A stretch of DNA of 36,458 nt. It comes from a virus (taxonomy: Duplodnaviria; Caudoviricetes). Position 1 is the first letter of the stretch. Each line of letters opens with the position of its first letter. The position numbers and the translations under genes are program-made. Below the pieces are notes generated by a model. The model did not search any database, was not told the origin of the DNA, and saw only the letters and a program-made list of their open reading frames with translations. Positions 14,888 to 26,393 of this stretch are shown here, one piece after another. The stretch lies in the IMG/VR virus record IMGVR_UViG_3300032318_002431, positions 1 to 36,458 of that record. The stretch is one strand, 5' to 3'.

Positions 14888-16408
14888 TTAATCCTGTCGT
14901 ATGCCATTGCGTTTTATTTCTATTGTTGGATCTAGCTTTTTCATTCTGTCAATGATTACTTGGCAATATTTCGGGTCTAATTCCATTCCGTAACATTTGC
15001 GTTTTAATTGGTGGGATGCTACCATTGTTGAACCGCTACCTAAAAACACATCTAAAACTAAACCGTTTTCGGGACAACTTGATTTTATTGCACGTTCGCA
15101 TAATGGTATAGGTTTTGGCGTTGCGTGTCCGCCTTCGCTTCCATTTCTTAAATGCCTTTCAAACTTCCAAACATTATTAAAGTTATCGTGTACATTATTA
15201 AAGTATGCCCTTGTAGAATAATATTCTTTTTTTAATTCTTCGTATTCTTTTTTTAATTCTTCGTATTCTTTTTTAAATGCTTCTATATTATTTTCAATGC
15301 AATAATTTTGTATTTTTTTATACGCTTCTTTTGTTGGAAATTCCCATTGACTTTTAGCCCAATAATGTGATACTCTTGTACTATCTATTTTTGATAATTC
15401 TTCTACTGATAATTTACTTTTTTTACGTTCATCTTCAAAATACAATCTTAATTTTTCAAATACTATATTATATTTTTGCTCATTTCTTTCAAATTCAAAT
15501 GATTGAACACCAATCATAACAAATAAACACTTTTCGTCTGCTATTGCATAGCTTCTTGTGTTCTCTGAATTTTGACCTTGTCCGTGTCCTTTATCCCAAG
15601 TAATTAAGTTTCTAAATGTTGCCTTTTGTTCTGCTATATATGGTTTTAATATTTCGCTGTAAATATCCATTAACGGCTCATCTATTCCCCAACAATAAAA
15701 ACTCCCACTTTCTTTTAAGTGTGTAAATTGTAAAGCAATCCATTCACGATTAAAATCTAATAAATCTGCATAGTTTAGATTATCATTTAGAACTCCTTCA
15801 TTTTCTTTTTTCATTCCGTATGGCGGGTCATTGTGCGCCATATCCGCTTTTTGTCCATTCATTAGCTTTGCTACTGCATCGCTATCAGTTGAATCGCCAC
15901 AAAGCAAACGATGTTCGCCTATTTCGAATAAATCCCCTAATACAATATCGGTTGTTATTTCGTTTGGTATTTCGTAATCGTCTTCTTCGGCTTCTAATAC
16001 TTCAGCTTCAAAGTTTGGTATCTCTAAACCCCAACCCTCTAACTCGGTAAGATCCCAATCCAATTTTAAAAGTTCAAAATCATGCTCGCCAAATCCTACA
16101 TTATCCTTGATAACATAAGCCTTTAATTTTTCTACAGGGGTATCTTCAGGAAGAATTTTGCAAGGAATTTCTTTAAATCCTAATTCTTTACACGCTCTAA
16201 ACCGCATATTTCCTGCAATAATTATAAGCGTGCCTTTATATTTATAAACAATTACTTCCCTTAACTCTAACATTTCAGGGTCGTCTTGAATCGATTTTAA
16301 CAGTTTCTTGTAGCGTTCTTCTTTTATAAATCGAGGATTTTTAGGCAAACCCTCGACTTGCCCAGTGTTTGGGCTTAAATCGCTAATTTTTACGCTTTGT
16401 ATCTCCAT
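14888..16408 (-). CDS. ParB-like N-terminal domain fused to an N6A/N4C DNA methyltransferase (beta class)
   Basis: KNPR...IIAGNMRFRA (ParB/Srx-like); HRLLCGDST, DPPY catalytic motif, HATPKP and VLDVFLGSGST SAM-binding motif. Confidence 0.93.
   Translation of the reverse strand: MEIQSVKISDLSPNTGQVEGLPKNPRFIKEERYKKLLKSIQDDPEMLELREVIVYKYKGTLIIIAGNMRFRACKELGFKEIPCKILPEDTPVEKLKAYVIKDNVGFGEHDFELLKLDWDLTELEGWGLEIPNFEAEVLEAEEDDYEIPNEITTDIVLGDLFEIGEHRLLCGDSTDSDAVAKLMNGQKADMAHNDPPYGMKKENEGVLNDNLNYADLLDFNREWIALQFTHLKESGSFYCWGIDEPLMDIYSEILKPYIAEQKATFRNLITWDKGHGQGQNSENTRSYAIADEKCLFVMIGVQSFEFERNEQKYNIVFEKLRLYFEDERKKSKLSVEELSKIDSTRVSHYWAKSQWEFPTKEAYKKIQNYCIENNIEAFKKEYEELKKEYEELKKEYYSTRAYFNNVHDNFNNVWKFERHLRNGSEGGHATPKPIPLCERAIKSSCPENGLVLDVFLGSGSTMVASHQLKRKCYGMELDPKYCQVIIDRMKKLDPTIEIKRNGIRQD
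15222..15277. repeat. 21-bp tandem repeat (about 2.6 copies) encoding KKEYEEL
   Basis: TATTCTTTTTTTAATTCTTCG at 15222 and 15243, partial copy at 15264. Confidence 0.9.
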
Positions 16409-16414
16409 TTTTCA

Positions 16415-16422
16415 CAAATTTA
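16415..16422 (-). promoter_or_regulatory. Bacteroidota-type -7 promoter box (TAAATTTG)
   Basis: In the short gap upstream of the methyltransferase ATG at 16408. Confidence 0.5.
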
Positions 16423-16431
16423 TAAAAAATA

Positions 16432-16692
16432 TTAGAAAAACAATGAAATTTCCTCAAAACAAGTGCAAACATGCACGGCAAAACCTTGACTTCTTAATTT
16501 TTCATGTCTGAATTTCTGTAGTTCAGAAGTTACGCCCTTGTCTGTTTTGACCTCAATAAATACTGTTTTTCCGCACTTTAAAGCCATTAAATCAGGGATG
16601 CCGTTCATTGTTGTTTTAATCAATTTTACAACAAGCCAATTCCTTTTTTCAAGTTCTAAAATTATTTTTCTTTGTACTTCGGATTCTTTCAT
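16432..16692 (-). CDS. VRR-NUC domain nuclease
   Basis: ESEVQ...GIPDL...FIEVK...SELQ PD-(D/E)xK signature. Confidence 0.92.
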   Translation of the reverse strand: MKESEVQRKIILELEKRNWLVVKLIKTTMNGIPDLMALKCGKTVFIEVKTDKGVTSELQKFRHEKLRSQGFAVHVCTCFEEISLFF

Positions 16693-16760
16693 TTATTTAA
16701 AAGCTCACGGTTTTCATAAATATTTCCAATGAAATACTTTTTCCTTGTGAAAATCCAGAT
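16689..16760 (-). pseudogene. 3' remnant of a YopX-family gene
   Basis: Startless frame reads ...YFIGNIYENRELLNK*, matching the YopX C-terminal IGNIYENPELL motif; its TGA overlaps the VRR-NUC ATG. Confidence 0.65.
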
Positions 16761-16773
16761 TTAAAAAGTTTAA

Positions 16774-17004
16774 TCATATATTTTCAATTTGTATTCTAAC
16801 TTCCTTCCACCAATTAATATGGTCAATATCATAGCTTCCTTCCGCAACGTCTAAAATTTCATCAACCGCGATTAAAGCACACATTTTAGCTTTTTTTTCA
16901 GCAATAATTGAATACCTTCCGTAAAACATAGGTCGGTATTTATCTACTAATCTTTTAGCTTCTTCTTTCGATTGTTTTTTTTGTTCTTCTGTCATTTTTT
17001 CCAT
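16774..17004 (-). CDS. Conserved small Bacteroidota-phage hypothetical protein
   Basis: AKRLVDKY...AKMCALIAVDEIL...WWKEV pattern. Confidence 0.75.
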   Translation of the reverse strand: MEKMTEEQKKQSKEEAKRLVDKYRPMFYGRYSIIAEKKAKMCALIAVDEILDVAEGSYDIDHINWWKEVRIQIENI

Positions 17005-18215
17005 TTTTTAAAAATTGATAAAGTAAAGTCTTTTTTACCCGATACTGTGTTATAAATTTCTTGTTCAATTCCACCTTTTGCGAAAATCCAGTAAATTTTA
17101 TTTTCCTTGCGTTCCATGGTTGTGAGCCTATCTCGGCTCTGCCAATAACTTACCGCTGAAAAGTCAATGTTATAATAAACAATCGCATCAGCTTTGGAAA
17201 GGTTAATTCCCTCACGCCCTGATACTATTTGTAAGGCAATAGATTTGTTTGTATCGTTAAATTCGGACAATTCAGTTGTCAAGGATTCTTGGAATGCTGA
17301 TTTTAAAGCATCTAGTTCAGCCTTAAACTTGTAAAATACAACTATCTTTTGGTAAGCAAATCTAACATAAATAAACACCGCTTTTGAGTTGTCAAATACT
17401 AAAGAATTGCCGCTCTCAAATTTTACTGTACCAGAATACATCTGATGCGTTTTCTGCATTAATTTTACAGCTGTATCCGCAAGTATAACCTCATCTTTAC
17501 CCTCAATTACTAGGTCTCGCTTTAATCGTTCTATAACGGCGTATGTTTCTTTATTCATTTCAACTTCCAAGATTTCTTCGTCAATTGTAGTGGTGAAACC
17601 AGCCTCTTTTTGCGTGTAAGTAATAAAATATGGCTCAATTATTTTAAATATTTTATCGTGATCAGCCCTAGAGTAGTCGTTTATCGTGCCGTGCGGTAGC
17701 TTCCTTTGTCGAATGTCCACAAAATCCTTAGCCCACTTATAAAATGTAGGGTAATTGCTAAATGGTGCGTATTTTGTTAAATTTAATTGATGGTAGAATT
17801 GCGAGTAGCTCTCAGGGCTTGGCGTGCCACTTAGGCATATCAATGGCTTGCCGTAAAATTTCGTTTTAAAAACATCCTGACCTTTAGATGGCTTAGGATA
17901 AGATCCATATTTATGGTGTTCATCACTTATGATGAGGTCGTAATCGTTCAAGGCTTTGTGTAAGGATTCTGCATTGGTAATTTTTATTTCAAAATGTTCT
18001 TTAAATCCGAAAGCCTCATAATCACCTTTAACCGAACTAAAAGCCCGGATTTTTGTAACAAACAAAACTTTTTTTGCCCCAAATAAACGAGCAGCCTCCA
18101 ACGCCATAAGTGTTTTTCCGCATCGGACTTCGGCTGAAATATAAACGAATTTATATTTTTCCAATTTTTCAAAGGCTAATTTGCCAATTTTAATTTGATA
18201 CTCCCTCATTTCCAT
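16992..18215 (-). CDS. SF2 (SNF2-like) helicase
   Basis: RCGKT, ISDEHH, LSGTP, SGREGINL and WQSRDR motifs. Confidence 0.9.
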   Translation of the reverse strand: MEMREYQIKIGKLAFEKLEKYKFVYISAEVRCGKTLMALEAARLFGAKKVLFVTKIRAFSSVKGDYEAFGFKEHFEIKITNAESLHKALNDYDLIISDEHHKYGSYPKPSKGQDVFKTKFYGKPLICLSGTPSPESYSQFYHQLNLTKYAPFSNYPTFYKWAKDFVDIRQRKLPHGTINDYSRADHDKIFKIIEPYFITYTQKEAGFTTTIDEEILEVEMNKETYAVIERLKRDLVIEGKDEVILADTAVKLMQKTHQMYSGTVKFESGNSLVFDNSKAVFIYVRFAYQKIVVFYKFKAELDALKSAFQESLTTELSEFNDTNKSIALQIVSGREGINLSKADAIVYYNIDFSAVSYWQSRDRLTTMERKENKIYWIFAKGGIEQEIYNTVSGKKDFTLSIFKKWKK

Positions 18216-20484
18216 TGTTCATTTTCTTTAAATAATCGTAAATAGTTACTCGTGATACGCCCAGTAATTCTGCTGCTTTTGTTTTGTTGAAATCAGGATT
18301 TTCTTCAAATAATGCTTTGATTTTGTCGCCTATTTTATCAACTTTCTTAGTTGAGTTTATCATATCTTTTGTTTCCGAAATTTCTATTTTCATTTTTTTA
18401 GCTTGTGCCACAAAATAATTACTCAATTTTTCGGCTTTCAACATGCTTTCTTTGCTAATTAGTAAAGCGTCGGGTGTTTCGCTAAAATTATACTCAAACA
18501 AATTAATCAGCAACGCAAAGCGTGGAATGTATGAACGCTGCTTTGGGTACATGCTTTTTAAATACTCATTTTCGTTCATATCATTCTGTTTTTCGACGTT
18601 TTTGTTGTAAATTCTTTCAAATTCATTTTCTGCATCTTTGGAAAAACGACAAATTTTAGGAATTATTTCTCCGTTCTGACCTCGAACGATTAGTTTTTGT
18701 ATAATTTCATAAAAACAAACTATTTCATTTGAATAATCCTGAATGATTTTTTCGTCCATTTGTTTCCTGTTGAAATTTTCCGCCTTTACGTCTGGAAAAG
18801 ACAGAAGCATTCGATCCATAAATCCATTTTCTTTATTTTCTTCGGTGTAAAGCGACGAAAAAATACTAGGCTGTACGCCGCCTAAAACAGGCATAGAAGC
18901 CCTTTCGACAAAAGAAGATTTAGCCGTCTTTCTGTTCAAATATATTTCTCCACCGCTCCAAGAGCTGAGCCAATTTTCAGTGTCCGAGCCCGAACGATAT
19001 TTATTCATATCCCTAAACCAACCTGCAATCTCGTCCTTAAAGATACCAACCGAATTGTCAGATTCTTGATGCAACTCGATTAAAGCCTCTAATGTGATAT
19101 CATTGGCTATAAATTGTCCGTTTTTTGGTTTTTTTTCATCTGGAACCTGTTCTTTTTCTTTCTTGTCCAGTGCCATATATTTGGCGTATTTTTCTGATTC
19201 ATGCGAATATTTTTTAATTTCTTTTGAATTGATATTTTTTAGCGGAAAAATAACATTATAAATACTCGGAGTCTTTCCCACGCCTGCCTTTCCAATTAAA
19301 GCCAGCCAAACCACAGACGGCTCAATATGTCCAACTGACACTTGGACAGCGAAGCAATTACCTACACAAACCGAAATAAGCCATAGTAACGAGCACCCCA
19401 TATAGTCCACGTTTAAAGAAAGTTTATCTTTACTTTCATATATATAATTTTGAATAAAAGGGTGGAAAATTTCTATAGGAAATTCAACGTCTTTAATTTT
19501 TTTTATTGGCTTTATTTCATTTAAAACCTCTTTTTTTTGCCGCCTACGGCTTCCAAAGCCCTGATCGTAAAGGTCGTTAATAGCCGCTTTTATGTCCTGC
19601 TTGTGATATTTACAAGCGTATGCAAAAAATGGAGTAATTAACTTCTCGTGGGGGTAAATCGTGCCCGTCGAAAATAAATAAACCGCATTTTTATTTTTAA
19701 AAATAGAACCACTTTGAGCATTTTTTGAGCCGTTTCTTTTTATTAAAATGAAAAATTCTTTATTGCCTCGTGGAATTATAGTAAAATCATCCTGTATTAT
19801 AGTCCAAATATCTGTTTTTTGGTTAAAATCGTCCCAAGGGGTTATTTCTCCATCCTGATATATTTTAACGTCTGTTTTTGGAGTTATTTTTGTTAATTCA
19901 ACTCTTGAATCATAGGATTTTGATATATTCCAAATTGTATCTCTGTCCTGATCTGATATATATTCGACAGAAAAATAACCGTTTTTTGAAACCCTTTTAT
20001 CAGGGTAAACAAAAATATAACCACCAATCCCTCTTGTCTCAATTACGGCTTCAACATGACCGTTGAGAACTGCTATTTTTTCATTACCACGTACTCTTTT
20101 TGACTTGTAAAGCAAATGATAACCGCCGGACTTGGTCTGGTAAATTACTATTTTATCGTCGAAATTTAGGATATTTTCTTTAATTGTAGATAGATATTCG
20201 TTCCAAAAATCATCTTTTTCTATTTGTGTAGAAAAAACTTTTGTGTCAATATCAATTACTTCTAAATCTTCAAATCCAGTTACAATCCCTACACCTTGAG
20301 TTGGTGCAATTTCTGAACCATCTGAGCGAAAAATACCACCTTTATAATTTAAATTCTTTAAAAAAGAATCATTTGGTAATTTTTCAGACTGTTGCTTTTT
20401 CCAAGGGAAATTTGGTACTTTATTTTCCCCGATTGTAATTATCGAAAAAAACTCAAGAAATTTTAAATATCTTTTTTCATCCAT
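18190..20484 (-). CDS. Prim-Pol primase fused to a DUF3987-like P-loop NTPase and C-terminal HTH (replication initiator)
   Basis: VIDID, TKSGGYH and IETRGIGGY (Prim-Pol); GKAGVGKTP and FKDEIAGW (NTPase); KAAELLGVSRVTIY (HTH); start likely ATG 20484. Confidence 0.9.
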   Translation of the reverse strand: MDEKRYLKFLEFFSIITIGENKVPNFPWKKQQSEKLPNDSFLKNLNYKGGIFRSDGSEIAPTQGVGIVTGFEDLEVIDIDTKVFSTQIEKDDFWNEYLSTIKENILNFDDKIVIYQTKSGGYHLLYKSKRVRGNEKIAVLNGHVEAVIETRGIGGYIFVYPDKRVSKNGYFSVEYISDQDRDTIWNISKSYDSRVELTKITPKTDVKIYQDGEITPWDDFNQKTDIWTIIQDDFTIIPRGNKEFFILIKRNGSKNAQSGSIFKNKNAVYLFSTGTIYPHEKLITPFFAYACKYHKQDIKAAINDLYDQGFGSRRRQKKEVLNEIKPIKKIKDVEFPIEIFHPFIQNYIYESKDKLSLNVDYMGCSLLWLISVCVGNCFAVQVSVGHIEPSVVWLALIGKAGVGKTPSIYNVIFPLKNINSKEIKKYSHESEKYAKYMALDKKEKEQVPDEKKPKNGQFIANDITLEALIELHQESDNSVGIFKDEIAGWFRDMNKYRSGSDTENWLSSWSGGEIYLNRKTAKSSFVERASMPVLGGVQPSIFSSLYTEENKENGFMDRMLLSFPDVKAENFNRKQMDEKIIQDYSNEIVCFYEIIQKLIVRGQNGEIIPKICRFSKDAENEFERIYNKNVEKQNDMNENEYLKSMYPKQRSYIPRFALLINLFEYNFSETPDALLISKESMLKAEKLSNYFVAQAKKMKIEISETKDMINSTKKVDKIGDKIKALFEENPDFNKTKAAELLGVSRVTIYDYLKKMNNGNEGVSN

Positions 20485-20531
20485 AAAAAAAAGCCCCAAG
20501 ATAAAAAAATTAGCGTTTTTTATCCTAGAGC
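20485..20531 (-). terminator. Intrinsic terminator/attenuator hairpin abutting the primase start codon
   Basis: 16-bp stem (20493-20508 with 20516-20531, three G-U pairs on the minus strand), 7-nt loop, then U8 and AUG. Confidence 0.8.
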
Positions 20532-20590
20532 CAAATTAAAAGGTTACACCTCTTATTTTTTCACAATCGCGCTAATCAATTGTTTTGTAA
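20485..20590 (-). ncRNA. Structured cis-regulatory leader RNA (three hairpins, complementary loops)
   Basis: Hairpin 20563-20583 with loop AUUAGCG; hairpin 20537-20555; terminator with loop CGCUAAU. Confidence 0.7.
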
Positions 20591-20593
20591 TAG

Positions 20594-20627
20594 TGCAAAT
20601 TTAATACTTTTTTTTCAATCTACCAAA
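20594..20627 (-). promoter_or_regulatory. Bacteroidota-type promoter for the replication operon
   Basis: TTTG (20624-20627), 20-nt spacer, TAAATTTG (20596-20603). Confidence 0.7.
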
Positions 20628-20629
20628 TT

Positions 20630-20968
20630 TATATATATATATATAAAAGTAAAGTGTAAAGTACTTTACGCTTTACAGTGAAAATGAAAAACCAAAAAAG
20701 GTAGTGTTTTTGCCATTTCGCAAAAAAAAGTGTAAAGTAAAGTGTAAAGTAAAGTGTAAAGTAAAATTAGCCTTTTTTCCAGTGTTTACCTATGTTTTGT
20801 TCAAAAAAAGTGTAAAGTTTACACTTTTGTATATTTTATTTTTATTTTTATATTTTTATATTTATTTTCTATAAAGTGTAAACTTTACACTTTACACTTA
20901 AAAAGCTAGTGTTTATCTAAAAAACTAGTGTAAAGTACTTTACACTACTTTACACTAGTTTACACTTT
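20630..20968. repeat. Iteron-like GTGTAAA array with palindromes; putative replication origin
   Basis: 7 forward and 6 reverse exact GTGTAAA copies, (AAAGTGTAAAGT)x3, a (TA)8 tract; adjacent to the primase gene. Confidence 0.75.
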
Positions 20969-21485
20969 TTTTTTGAACAAAAACAGATAATTCTTTATAA
21001 TCATTTTTTTCACATGATCTTTTTACGTAAAAATTACCTCCGTCTACGGAATAGAATGATCCGTTATCGTCTTTGTGACAGACATAATCATACCTATTTT
21101 TACTTATTAAAACAGTGCCATCCGGTGTTTGGATTGCGTTTAATATAATTTCTTTATATAATTTTTCTGCATTTTTTTTAATCAAATTCTCATGTCTTAA
21201 ACCCATCGTGTAAGATTTGTAATTGATATGCTGAGGATTTTTGTTAAAAACATTAAAATCAGTCTCTTCGTTTGACCAATTTTTAATACAACCCTTAGGC
21301 TGATTGGTTTTTAAATCAAATATAATGTCGGATAAATTGAAATAATATTGAAAAGAAAATGAAGCTATTCCCCCAATTTCATAATCAACCCATCCTTCAA
21401 AATCAATTTGTTGTTTTTTTTCAAATTTTGCAACAAATTCGTTACAAATGAACTCGTATTTTTCCTTTAATTCTTTTGTTTTCAT
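20955..21485 (-). CDS. Hypothetical two-domain protein with a conserved phage C-terminal domain
   Basis: C-terminal NAIQTPDGTVLIS...YDYV...VDGG...R motif; start likely ATG 21485. Confidence 0.7.
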   Translation of the reverse strand: MKTKELKEKYEFICNEFVAKFEKKQQIDFEGWVDYEIGGIASFSFQYYFNLSDIIFDLKTNQPKGCIKNWSNEETDFNVFNKNPQHINYKSYTMGLRHENLIKKNAEKLYKEIILNAIQTPDGTVLISKNRYDYVCHKDDNGSFYSVDGGNFYVKRSCEKNDYKELSVFVQKKSVN

Positions 21486-21728: not shown

Positions 21729-21986
21729 TTATTTTAATTGATTTAACGCTTCTTCTAAATTCTCTATTTTTTTTTGGCGATCTATTATTCTTTCTTCCCA
21801 ATCTCTTATTCTTTCTTCATATTTTTTTACTATAATTGTCATTATAAATATTATTACAAACATTAAGTACATTATCGAAGTAAACCGTTTTAGCAAACTC
21901 GTTTCTTTCACTATAACTATTATCATGAATGTTATCATGAATGTTAAACAAATTAATGAAGCTAGAAGAAACCATTGTTGATCCAT
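21729..21986 (-). CDS. Two-TM membrane protein with C-terminal coiled coil
   Basis: Two hydrophobic helices followed by a charged heptad tail. Confidence 0.65.
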   Translation of the reverse strand: MDQQWFLLASLICLTFMITFMIIVIVKETSLLKRFTSIMYLMFVIIFIMTIIVKKYEERIRDWEERIIDRQKKIENLEEALNQLK

Positions 21987-22055
21987 ATTTTTTTTTTATT
22001 TTATTTTTTTTTTGTAACTTTGTAATGCTTTTTCATACATTAATTTTTAAATCGA

Positions 22056-22098
22056 AAAAAACCCACGTTGGATTAATCCAATTTGGGTATTTTTTTTT
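22056..22098. terminator. Probable bidirectional intrinsic terminator
   Basis: Hairpin 22061-22088 (ACCCAcgTTGGA-TTAA-TCCAAttTGGGT) with an A-run on the left and a T-run on the right. Confidence 0.7.
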
Positions 22099-22166
22099 AA
22101 TGCATTAAATAAATTAAATTTTTAATTATTATTATCAAAATAATAATCAGTAAAAAAATTATAACA

Positions 22167-22403
22167 TCAAAAAGATGTATTTTTCTTTTCATTTTCTCTT
22201 TTTATTAAAATTGGTTTTTTATTTTTTGCTAAAAGTTTGTTAACTTGCTCAACATTGTAAATTTTTGTTTTTTTTAAAACACAATGAGGAAATTTTAGTT
22301 CTTTATTAAATTTATGAAAAAAAACACTCACTGATATTTCTGTTTTAGAATATTTTTCAAAATAATATTCTCTAGCTATTTCGCTCGCTTTTTTATACGC
22401 CAT
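22167..22403 (-). CDS. Small basic protein, possible excisionase-like/HTH DNA-binding protein
   Basis: 78 aa, basic; ASEIAREY and KIYNVEQVNKLL resemble a winged-HTH Xis-type layout. Confidence 0.45.
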   Translation of the reverse strand: MAYKKASEIAREYYFEKYSKTEISVSVFFHKFNKELKFPHCVLKKTKIYNVEQVNKLLAKNKKPILIKRENEKKNTSF

Positions 22404-23079
22404 ATTCCGATTTTAAAAAATTTCTGCACAATTCTACTTTTTGATATATTTTATCAATTTTTTTTTGACACCTTGGTATTTTTTTTACAAAAACACGTTC
22501 TTCAATAATTATATCTGAATATTTGCCGTTTTTTTCAATATCATCAAACAAATTTTTGAATTTCATATCACCTTCTGAGCCTAAGCCCAATTTATATGCC
22601 AAACTTCTTTTTTCGCCGTCTAAAATATGGTCAGGCGTATCTACCAAGCAATAAACTAGTTCAGCTTCCTCAGCCCCTGTAAGTGCCATGTAGCCCTGCA
22701 ATTGCCAATCGTACGCCTTGTTTATGTCATCCATTTTTGCCTTATGAAAGGTAAATATATCCCAAGAACTTTTTATATCAATCACTTTTTTTTCTAAAAT
22801 TATGTCGGGCGTTCCAGAAATAAAATCATTTTGAAAATTCTTCTCATTTTTTTTGTAAAAAGTATTATAAAAAAGAGAAAGTAGCGTAATACTATCCTCT
22901 TCAACCAAGGTGCCTTTCTCCATATATTTGCTTGAGACATCTTTTTTTCTTCCATATTTTTCCCTTATGAAAACTTCTTGCAAGTATGTTTTGCAAGTTT
23001 CGGAAAGTACCTCAGATTTGCTCCGAGGTTCAGTCATTATAGCCCCTAAAGAGGAGCACCTAAATAGTATTTGTTTCAT
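22393..23079 (-). CDS. YqaJ / lambda-exonuclease-like recombination nuclease
   Basis: RCSSLG, MEKGTLVE, GTPD, DIKSSW and YDWQLQGYM motifs. Confidence 0.9.
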   Translation of the reverse strand: MKQILFRCSSLGAIMTEPRSKSEVLSETCKTYLQEVFIREKYGRKKDVSSKYMEKGTLVEEDSITLLSLFYNTFYKKNEKNFQNDFISGTPDIILEKKVIDIKSSWDIFTFHKAKMDDINKAYDWQLQGYMALTGAEEAELVYCLVDTPDHILDGEKRSLAYKLGLGSEGDMKFKNLFDDIEKNGKYSDIIIEERVFVKKIPRCQKKIDKIYQKVELCRNFLKSEYGV

Positions 23080-23842
23080 TTTCTATTTCTGTTTTTTTTG
23101 TTTCAAATTCTACTTTAAATTCGTCAATTTTATTTTCAATAAATTTTAAAACGCCCTCTTTATCCCTTTCTATCTCTGTTTTTTTTGTTTCAAATTCTAC
23201 TTTAAATTCCTCAATTCTATTAATTGGAATTGAATTTTTTAAATTTTCCAAATCCTCTGTGTTTTGGCTTTTTTCAATAAATTTTAAAATTCTTTCGCCC
23301 TCAACATCTTTTTTTTCAGGTGCCAAATCTTCTAATTCGTCCACCGAGTGCATTCCTGAGGTTATTTGACTTGCAAATAATCGGCTGAAAAAAGTTGCCG
23401 ACCTGTACATTATCATTAATTCAGGCATGTTTTTCCATTTGCTGCCGGGCTTCTGAGCCCAACCCTCGGCAATTGCCATCTGCATAGTTACTTTTGGCGA
23501 TTTTAAAACTGCACCTGTCTTGCTGCAAGTACCAAAAGCTGTGCATTCTAAAGTATTACCGTGCCCTTTCACGTCGAACGCCAACGGCCCGGTAATTATT
23601 CCGCTTGAATTGATTAAAGCAATCAAGAAAGTCGATGAAAAACTGGGCTTGCCTTGAATTACATCTAAATTTTGCATGACCATTAAAGGCTCGCATTGCA
23701 TTCTTTTTGCCATACCAATTGCAATCATGCAATCAGCTACGTTTCCTTGATACCTTTTTGGCACTAATGCACTTACCGAAAGTGCTTTAGCCAATCTTAC
23801 TTCTGCATTCAAGCTTTCTGTTTCTGTTTTTGTTATTTCCAT
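23060..23842 (-). CDS. RecT-like single-strand annealing protein
   Basis: LVPKRYQGNVADC...VMQNLDVIQGKPSFS...KWKNMPELMIMYRSA; paired with the exonuclease. Confidence 0.82.
   Translation of the reverse strand: MEITKTETESLNAEVRLAKALSVSALVPKRYQGNVADCMIAIGMAKRMQCEPLMVMQNLDVIQGKPSFSSTFLIALINSSGIITGPLAFDVKGHGNTLECTAFGTCSKTGAVLKSPKVTMQMAIAEGWAQKPGSKWKNMPELMIMYRSATFFSRLFASQITSGMHSVDELEDLAPEKKDVEGERILKFIEKSQNTEDLENLKNSIPINRIEEFKVEFETKKTEIERDKEGVLKFIENKIDEFKVEFETKKTEIENETNTI
23080..23221. repeat. 55-bp direct repeat (52/55 identical, 87-bp period) in the RecT-like 3' end
   Basis: Copies at 23080-23134 and 23167-23221, each encoding EFKVEFETKKTEIE. Confidence 0.9.
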
Positions 23843-24263: not shown

Positions 24264-25430
24264 TTAAAAGCCAGCCATATAAAATTGGCTTGTATTCTCG
24301 AACCTAGACAAAGCAACATATTGAATGCTTATCCAGTCTTTTTTGTTATATCTTTTTGCGTCCAAAATGCTAGCGTGCAAAATTCCTTTTTGCAAAGTCA
24401 AACCTTGGCAACGGCGTATGGATAAATAATTTGCGGGTAAAATCGGCATGAAAAGATAAGATTTTTCTATCTTTTTTATTTCAAAATCATCATTTTGAAC
24501 AGTTGTTATATATTTTTTCTCGCAAAGCGAAACAAAAACAACTACTCCATTATCTTTTTTTATTTTTATTTTTTCATCTATAAAATCTAAGATAATTCCA
24601 GTTTCGCCGTTGCAATATCCTTCACGCATGCTGTTTTTTGTTATAATAACTGGCATTCCTTGCCAAACTTTAATATTTGAGTACGATTTGTCTTGGTCTT
24701 CCTCTTCGCAATAAAAATGATATTCTTTGACACCATCTGGACACTTAACGTTTGCATTTAATTTGTCCATCAAAGATCGGTTAGCAACGATTTTTATTGC
24801 GTTCTCATTCTCTATTTTTTTGTTATGATTTTTTTTGATAAAAATTTCAGTTTCTTTACAAATACCATTTTCTCTGATTTTTTGTAATATGTTAAAAAAT
24901 TCTTGATCTTCTTTCTGTCTAACATTTTCGTTTAATTTGATAAAATAAAAATGTTTTAAAATTTCTGAATTTTGCAAACTATTCCCCCAACCAACAGACG
25001 GCATCTGTTTAAAATCTCCAGCCACAATAATTTGGAAGCCACCGAAAGGCTTTTTTCTTTCACCTTTACAACGAAGTCCAACGTCTATTTGTCTGAATTG
25101 TTCTTCGGAAAGCAAACAAATCTCGTCAATAACAATTATACTGTTTTTTGGATATTTTTCCCATTTATTATTTTCTCGTATCTCATCGTCTGTTTGATCA
25201 TACAAAAATAGAGATAATGCAATACTTGAGCTTACTGTTACGCCGCCTAAATTTAGAGCCGCAATCCCAGTACTTGCGTAAAGATAAACTGTTCTTTCTG
25301 TTATTTCTGCTAAACTTTTAAGAAGAAAGGTTTTTCCTGTTCCAGCGACACCCTCAATAAAGATATTTTTGCCTTGTTTTGCTGCCAAAATAACTTTTTT
25401 TTGGCTCTTTGTTAAAAATTTTAAATTCAT
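24264..25430 (-). CDS. Pif1/RecD-like SF1B helicase
   Basis: GVAGTGKT, ASTGIAA, VIDEI, PFGG, GDFKQM, ENVRQ, NGETG and CQGLTL motifs. Confidence 0.92.
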   Translation of the reverse strand: MNLKFLTKSQKKVILAAKQGKNIFIEGVAGTGKTFLLKSLAEITERTVYLYASTGIAALNLGGVTVSSSIALSLFLYDQTDDEIRENNKWEKYPKNSIIVIDEICLLSEEQFRQIDVGLRCKGERKKPFGGFQIIVAGDFKQMPSVGWGNSLQNSEILKHFYFIKLNENVRQKEDQEFFNILQKIRENGICKETEIFIKKNHNKKIENENAIKIVANRSLMDKLNANVKCPDGVKEYHFYCEEEDQDKSYSNIKVWQGMPVIITKNSMREGYCNGETGIILDFIDEKIKIKKDNGVVVFVSLCEKKYITTVQNDDFEIKKIEKSYLFMPILPANYLSIRRCQGLTLQKGILHASILDAKRYNKKDWISIQYVALSRFENTSQFYMAGF

Positions 25431-25802: not shown

Positions 25803-25956
25803 CAAAGTTATAACTTTTAAAATAATAAAAAAAATATTTAAAGAAATAATTATCAACAAAGATGTGTTAATAATTTTTTATGTAGATAAATACAACCTTT
25901 TTTGTGTTATAGAAATAAATATTTTTTTTTATTCAAAATAAAGTATTAAATTTGCA
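25803..25956. promoter_or_regulatory. Divergent promoter region
   Basis: TAACTTTG on minus (25803-25810) and TAAATTTG on plus (25947-25954) at the strand switch; palindrome at 25804-25817; inverted repeat at 25848-25875. Confidence 0.7.
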
Positions 25957-25982
25957 ATACAATTATTTAATAAAATGAATAT

Positions 25983-26393
25983 ATGGAAAAAATATTAATA
26001 GGCGGTCAAGCATTAAGAGAGTTAGGTTCAAGCCGACACACTAACGATGTTGATTATCTAATTTACGACGAAAAAAGCAACAAAATGTTTCTAAAAGACG
26101 AGGAAAAAAACACGGACTACCTTAACGCTGCGGCAAGTTCTTTTTTCAATGAAATTTTCAAAATTGAAAAAAACAACGAAATAGCAAGTGCTCAAAGTTT
26201 GCTTGAATTAAAGGCTTACAGTTGGATACAGCACCTTACCAACGGTAACTGGGCGAAAGCCGCTGATTGTGAATTTGACATGGCTTTTTTAGTTCGAGAA
26301 AAAAATGCAAAAATGCCATCAATTGTTAAAAAATATGTTTCAAAAAGCGAATTTGAAGAAATAAAAAAAGAAATTAACCAAATTAAAAAGTAA
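25983..26393 (+). CDS. Putative nucleotidyltransferase (Pol-beta superfamily motif)
   Basis: ILIGGQAL...SSRHTNDVDYLI matches the hhGG...RxTxDxD NTase signature. Confidence 0.68.
   Translation: MEKILIGGQALRELGSSRHTNDVDYLIYDEKSNKMFLKDEEKNTDYLNAAASSFFNEIFKIEKNNEIASAQSLLELKAYSWIQHLTNGNWAKAADCEFDMAFLVREKNAKMPSIVKKYVSKSEFEEIKKEINQIKK

Follow-up and report, generated by a model that had tools for sequence, protein, structure and literature searches.

A putative attenuator leader with complementary hairpin loops heads replication operons in probable Bacteroidota phages

The window analyzed here is the whole 36,458-base virus record IMGVR_UViG_3300032318_002431, which carries direct terminal repeats and encodes terminase, portal, head protease, baseplate and tape-measure-like proteins together with a block of DNA-metabolism genes. 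None of the 60 window ORFs scanned matched an integrase or repressor family. From its TAnnTTTG promoters and from the Bacteroidota titles of most MAG loci with relatives of its primase, we infer a host in Bacteroidota. The gene of interest is a primase-type replication gene on the minus strand (18190..20484; 764 aa), identified by family matches as Prim-Pol, DUF3987 and a C-terminal HTH, and its AUG at 20484 agrees with the start of its relatives. It is followed on the same strand by an SF2 helicase, a small ORF, a VRR-NUC nuclease and a ParB_N-methylase (14888..18215), which, to judge from the gene spacing, are probably cotranscribed with it in the same operon. A PIF1/Dda-like helicase and a RecT-like/exonuclease pair lie upstream on this strand (24264-25430 and 22393-23842). 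Farther on, a second copy of the promoter segment (25907-25959; 77% over 53 nt, including AAAGTATTAAATTTGCA) drives a divergent plus-strand ORF at 25983, and the leader hairpins are absent there. A strong hairpin with U tracts on both strands (22046-22088) occupies the 21986-22167 gap downstream of a plus-strand TAnnTTTG box, without a loop-loop match of the type described below.

The primase leader extends over 20485-20591 on the minus strand and leads from a Bacteroidota-type promoter through three hairpins and a U8 tract to the AUG. By its sequence pattern, the promoter is TTTG-20 nt-TAAATTTG (20627-20596, minus strand). Its TTTG (20624..20627), which we take to be the -33 element of a Bacteroidota sigma-A-type promoter, falls within a second TAAATTTG box (20624-20631), and the -7 box TAAATTTG (TAnnTTTG, 20596..20603) forms invariant columns in the leader alignment. 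The pattern alone was not rare in the window (6 matches, 3.1 expected). Considering that the Bacteroidota -7 box spans -12 to -5 (PMC9723704), the predicted start is ~20591 and the terminated RNA would measure about 105-107 nt. Folding gave hairpin 1 at 20563..20583 (7 bp, -3.8 kcal/mol), with the loop AUUAGCG at 20570-20576 (seed a); a middle hairpin 2 at 20537..20555 (8 bp, -6.1 kcal/mol), also present in 20 of the 63 parsed family leaders; and a terminator-like hairpin 3 at 20492..20532 (16 bp plus a terminal G-U, -18.0 kcal/mol, z = -6.3), all on the minus strand. The latter has a weak A-U apex, a G-C/G-U base and the loop CGCUAAU at 20509-20515 (seed a'). The U8 tract (20485..20492) is directly 5' of the start codon, and together with hairpin 3 it has the form of an intrinsic terminator, a stable hairpin and then a U tract; family-wide, the U tracts have a median of 7 U in 9 nt. 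Loop 1 and the predicted terminator loop are exact 7-nt complements. The initial annotation had described this promoter, the three hairpins, their loops with the exact complementarity of AUUAGCG and CGCUAAU, U8 and the AUG, and sequence and folding recovered each of them in its place. Its argument that G-U pairs fix minus as the RNA strand also stood, since folding of the whole leader gave -29.6 (z = -4.4) for the minus strand and -13.8 (z = -1.2) for the plus strand. The middle hairpin (20541-20549) holds GGTGTAACC, which shares GTGTAA with the repeats upstream and also occurs, at a different structural position, in L024, L025 and L169.

Those repeats, just upstream of the leader, had been overlooked in the initial annotation. 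Ten copies of GTGTAAAG in both orientations at 20654-20955, separated by AT-rich spacers, make up an origin-like array (20640..20975), and a (TA)n run at 20628-20642 adjoins it. The repeat was counted 12 times in the whole window, with 0.9 expected, and the array presumably acts as an origin. We compared 20640-20975 of the window with the 350 nt upstream of the promoter in relatives (L002-L061, L097, L101, L111, L125, L127, L132, L166-L199). About half of the relatives had no repeat array at the corresponding place. In the relatives, the repeat type tracked the recognition helix in the HTH at the C terminus of the primase: GTTCACA occurred with SRRHIINIVK, TGTCACA with SRRQVIRA, CTTTACA with SRQQ(V/I)INLIK and GGTTTAA with SLQMIYKY. 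Even between L055 and L056, despite near-identical primases, repeat and HTH helix both differed. The repeat type varied independently of the kissing seed.

Relatives of the primase were collected in several searches, two of which took the best 80 of 533 and the best 80 of 583 matches. Among the 196 matched sequences (window included), 162 had the start and 200 nt upstream, and these gave 130 distinct regions. With a detector that took no account of complementarity, a promoter and a terminator were recognized in 58 of the 130 regions; the 72 left out included many primases inside an operon and some leaders that the detector had missed (L004, L085 and L147, seen by eye, and L082, recovered by RNA model). 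Pairing was measured as the number of contiguous Watson-Crick pairs that the first 32 nt can form with the apex of the terminator. At least 6 loop-loop pairs were found in 54 of the 58 leaders and at least 7 in 40, compared with 9.4% and 3.9% of non-cognate and 7.3% and 1.8% of shuffled combinations. Thus, the loop complementarity, which the initial annotation had proposed to look for in homologous leaders, was retained there with changed letters. A wider scan recovered the leader in many of the remaining regions, at 280-590 nt upstream and separated from the primase by an inserted small ORF. This variable ORF of 52-133 aa, which belongs to no known family among those scanned, lies between leader and primase as if in a cassette slot (L007, L010, L018, L062, L071, L073, L076, L089, L093, L103, L110, L125, L136, L161, L168, L191). 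On the primase tree, the leader was detected for 83 of 135 members; none was found within 650 nt for 41, and the flank was too short for 11.

MAFFT did not align 36 diverse leaders true to their structure, and scripts were used in its place. In a subfamily of 16 sequences, the kissing pairs were 95-100% paired, five of seven changed on both sides, and 0 of 500 shuffles reached the whole-structure measures; P1 pairing stayed at 59% in this count because its register shifts with loop length. A subfamily-specific RNA model, R1, had no match in 5 MAGs. A loop-blind pattern, whose set overlaps the first in at least one locus, returned 37 loci with 27 distinct leaders and 7 different seeds, and all 27 had exactly 7 pairs; 24% of non-cognate pairs also matched in this set because its members share seeds. 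Throughout the family, the loops have kissing size (7-9 nt), both stems are intact, and spacing and unpaired linker length are conserved. Beyond A/U-rich linker words, the leaders held no conserved unpaired motif and no conserved sequence able to address another target. The comparative sequence evidence indicates that the leader is a real, selected, widespread and uncatalogued RNA element.

The initial annotation had linked the leader to replication initiation, and this link proved stronger than claimed, as the leader precedes unrelated initiator families. Among 25 ORFs after loop-blind leaders, 14 matched replication families of at least five unrelated kinds (Prim-Pol, BT4734-like_N with PriCT_1, HTH_36 or Phg_2220_C initiators, AAA_25 and ResIII helicase), one matched DUF6291 and one HNH, and nine had no match, five of which resemble initiators by eye. 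Presence of the leader was the criterion for choosing 20 largely complete related genomes. Of their 100 promoter-plus-terminator units, 28 kiss, and a part of these probably do so by chance. Fourteen of the genomes had one kissing unit only, and the unit lay at the replication operon in 19, the 20th being recognized by RNA model. Wherever both were read, second leaders carried different seeds. These second kissing leaders (L010:7033, L015:1250, L019:904, L070:244, L099:731, L101:6879, L107:269, L111:8680) precede HNH/NUMOD4, GIY-YIG and unknown genes. Cultured carriers were also found, with the leader before replication genes: Flavobacterium phage 11b (8 loop-loop pairs; one of its seven units), elemoF_6-3D, elemoA_7-9A, Olleya phage Harreka_1 and hattifnatt9-1. 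No such leader was present in 6.4 kb of MW202828, and no full-length primase relative was found in cultured phages.

The carriers seem to be lytic. A search for tyrosine integrase by its family PF00589 gave none in 33 related records, 21 of them near-complete, and the study behind hattifnatt9-1 describes its 38 LMO phage isolates as virulent and without lysogeny genes (PMC7077304). A role in lysogenic immunity is therefore unlikely, and any effect in trans would be exerted within the lytic cycle or during co-infection.

Seeds were far from uniform, with about 55 different ones among 69 leaders. They differed in 9 of 22 nearest-neighbour primase pairs at ≥95% identity, which amount to about five independent cases, five of the nine coming from one clade, and seed alleles were balanced among primases 96-99% identical. 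Few non-cognate seed pairs (66 of 3080, 2%) came within 2 kcal of cognate. The phages elemoA and elemoF have a common host and different seeds. In one subfamily, all 26 loci carry a third, co-varying copy of seed a immediately 5' of the AUG, as three alleles in 15, 10 and 1 loci, the second allele's copy having one mismatch; family-wide, a third copy of at least 6 nt was found in 5 of 69 leaders, and the window has none. Seeds starting with GU on one strand were also overrepresented (34 of 56, 7.9 in shuffles), which suggests a structural constraint. Seed pairs with swapped polarity between phages (loop 1 versus terminator loop) numbered 22, with 3.2 expected and relatives being non-independent; examples are L002/L063 and L074/L075.

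Across the family, the median kissing duplex (-9.2 kcal/mol) is stronger than the apical nucleation of hairpin 3 (-2.6 kcal/mol). When the window was folded at successive transcript lengths, as equilibrium folds and not kinetics, the best nested fold at 88-92 nt paired loop 1 with a', and the terminator won at 96 nt. The element likely functions in attenuation of the replication operon, and we consider it quite probable that it sets initiator output through the kiss. The kiss would somewhat more plausibly be the ON state than the OFF state, because the pre-formed loop 1 would capture the emerging a' ahead of nucleation at the weak apex of hairpin 3, which would delay closure of the terminator; guanidine-IV, compared below, provides a precedent. 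In the window, the closed hairpin-3 stem would also mask the start region. This stem ends 7-8 nt 5' of the AUG, and since translation initiation in Bacteroidota is tuned by mRNA structure (PMC6847099), a closed stem near the AUG is expected to lower translation as well.

The initial annotation had interpreted the leader as a switch of termination or translation. Selection on the complementarity and the tie to replication partly support this interpretation, the switching itself being a predicted function, but mutual exclusion of kiss and terminator was unsupported in most members by a length test. With 5.9 A per free base, 2.8 A per pair and no bend, this rough test found kiss and complete terminator compatible in 57 of 63 leaders, with a median slack of 1.6-1.8, and general steric exclusion of the terminator by the kiss was rejected. 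The window had a slack of 0.62 with the extended middle hairpin and ~1.2 by hand count with the 8-bp form; counting weak A-U extensions shortens the linkers to 11-13 unpaired bases, so the length result depends on the pairs counted. Without exclusion, the kiss may form within the terminated RNA and leave it inactive in trans.

A separate trans-encoded partner in the window was rejected, as the seed occurs 6 times with 4.9 expected. An antisense promoter on the opposite strand was rejected as well: within 160 nt downstream, a sigma-A -7 box, the only promoter element sought, was found in 7 of 69 leaders, compared with a 16.9% background, and in the window there was none. The remark in the initial annotation that no antisense partner is evident holds, and the family has no conserved opposite-strand promoter. 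An AUG before the terminator was present in 11 of 69 leaders, with unrelated peptides, and absent from the window, and leader-peptide coupling of the IncI/B/K type was rejected on these counts. With no counter-transcript promoter, leader peptide or conserved aptamer, the terminated RNA would be the obvious carrier of a'. Our leading reading, tentative and slightly less likely than not, is that the leader attenuates, with read-through promoted by the kiss and with the terminated RNA as an allele-specific off signal in trans. As it accumulates, the ~105-nt terminated RNA could, with a similar degree of reserve, present the a' loop that it carries to loop 1 on newly made transcripts, block the cis kiss and latch termination. 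The initiator would then be made in an early pulse until copy number or multiplicity shuts it off, an effect confined to phages sharing a seed. The seed switching, the low cross-pairing, the elemoA/elemoF difference and the third copy in 26 of 26 loci make this trans reading plausible but unproven.

The alternative that survives best is a cis-only kinetic attenuator, which we regard as possible though rather unlikely. Competition between kiss and terminator folding would fix the read-through fraction, which would follow polymerase speed, Nus factors, Mg2+ or temperature and tie initiator output to host state, and seeds would differ merely by drift and module exchange. The weak apex, the stronger kiss and the spacing and unpaired linker length conserved across the family agree with this alternative, as do the lytic appearance of the carriers and the missing counter-transcript promoter. 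Moreover, in the 16-sequence subfamily, both-side changes affected 23 of 112 cells of the seed pairs and 55 of 272 of the terminator pairs; seeds changed no faster than stems, and seed switching could be plain module exchange. However, the balanced alleles among nearly identical primases are left unexplained, and so is the three-way co-varying copy at the AUG, though a cis pseudoknot could account for the copy.

The protein Rom reads the ColE1 RNA I/RNA II kissing structure without regard to sequence, and a phage or host protein might likewise recognize the kissing structure here, whatever its letters, and tip termination or translation. Conservation of shape, loop size and spacing with free letters, and the excess of seeds starting with GU, are what such a reader would predict. 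Nevertheless, we consider it improbable: no candidate protein was identified, the downstream initiators are mutually unrelated and none of them can be the common binder, and no unpaired motif is conserved beyond the A/U-rich linker words. Slightly more doubtful still is the reading that the terminated ~105-nt RNA is itself the functional product, as a stable small RNA whose tertiary fold is the kiss, and that constitutive leak supplies the initiator. The coexistence of kiss and full terminator by length in most leaders, the kissing-size loops and the intact stems would suit such a product; against it, the leaders are placed strictly in front of replication operons, which are of unrelated types, and have no conserved sequence to address another target. 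Finally, the window is an outlier, with a long primase branch (best identity 59%), a leader missed by subfamily model R1, one of the weakest seeds of the family (-6.6) without the usual 5'-GU, and no hairpin-form use of this seed elsewhere (0 of 51 distinct matches), yet a chance match or decayed relic beside an ordinary terminator is very improbable, since two given loops would match exactly over 7 nt with p ~6e-5 at window composition, covariation in relatives excludes a chance origin, position and layout are as in relatives, both stems are intact and the leader is the only kissing promoter-plus-terminator unit in its genome.

In pT181 and pIP501 counter-transcript attenuation and in the IncI/B/K rep pseudoknots, a structured leader and loop-loop recognition control a replication initiator, and sequence variants give specificity. 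The leader described here would share these traits and differs in that its complement is on the same strand. For guanidine-IV (the mepA motif), a kiss between a 5' hairpin and the terminator hairpin was proposed to hinder terminator completion and promote read-through (PMC11611296). A 5' hairpin loop complementary to the terminator loop is present here too; in contrast, our leader has no conserved ligand-binding letters, its seeds vary freely, it has no Rfam match, and it precedes phage replication initiators instead of mepA-type guanidine exporters. In P4, the CI RNA derives from the operon's leader, is complementary to seqA and seqC, which flank CI there, and silences the replication genes by ending transcription prematurely (PMC4825925), and in P1/P7 the loop-borne antisense c4 is linked to heteroimmunity (PMC12197685). 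Complementary boxes in the leader of a replication operon recur here, and the subfamily with the third seed copy has an upstream-and-downstream target layout like seqA and seqC. Unlike CI and c4, the RNA would be ~105 nt, with the antisense seed in the terminator's own loop and no processing evident; there was no C4 or IsrK match in Rfam, and the carriers lack tyrosine integrase. An Rfam search, which the initial annotation had suggested, gave no family at gathering score in the window and none among matches with E<=10; the best match by E-value, Spy779816, was rejected as terminator resemblance (30 bits, cut-off 67). Taken together, these comparisons suggest that the leader resembles guanidine-IV in geometry and P4 CI/c4 in logic, and belongs to neither of them nor to the plasmid counter-transcript systems.

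Anonymous candidate structured RNAs, such as DNAVirus_4940 and DNAVirus_4859, were listed by Fremin et al. (2023) no more than 25 nt upstream of PriCT_1/VirE_N or HTH_36/Phage_rep_O genes (PMC10690425). Like our leader, they sit upstream of replication-type genes. DNAVirus_4940 measures 85 nt, comes from freshwater and marine viruses and is marked as without terminator (PMC10690425). The word "kissing" was absent from the main text of PMC10690425. Some of these candidates may be pieces of this leader class, and the supplements of PMC5737381 and the alignments of PMC10690425 may hold overlapping motifs. Our literature searches, which covered few subscription papers, found no description of the leader, and the searchable literature gave none of replication timing or dosing in repressor-less Bacteroidota phages. 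Sequence-based catalogues would miss the leader because almost no letter is conserved.

Since the leader is found time and again in front of replication operons with different initiator families, it is a candidate general control point. It is directly testable in the cultured carriers, including two Elemovirus groups with different seeds on a common host. If the trans model is true, a short RNA could be used to silence phages of a given seed allele, and the ~55 natural, largely orthogonal seeds could be used as regulators in Bacteroidota genetics. More speculatively, and rather doubtfully as a whole, lytic Bacteroidota phages may use a self-sensing, protein-free latch, with the leader as attenuator and its own trans repressor, and the 7-nt seed, as an exchangeable identity code, may together with the exchangeable pair of origin repeat and HTH define plasmid-like incompatibility groups. 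If so, these groups would decide which co-infecting relatives silence each other's replication.
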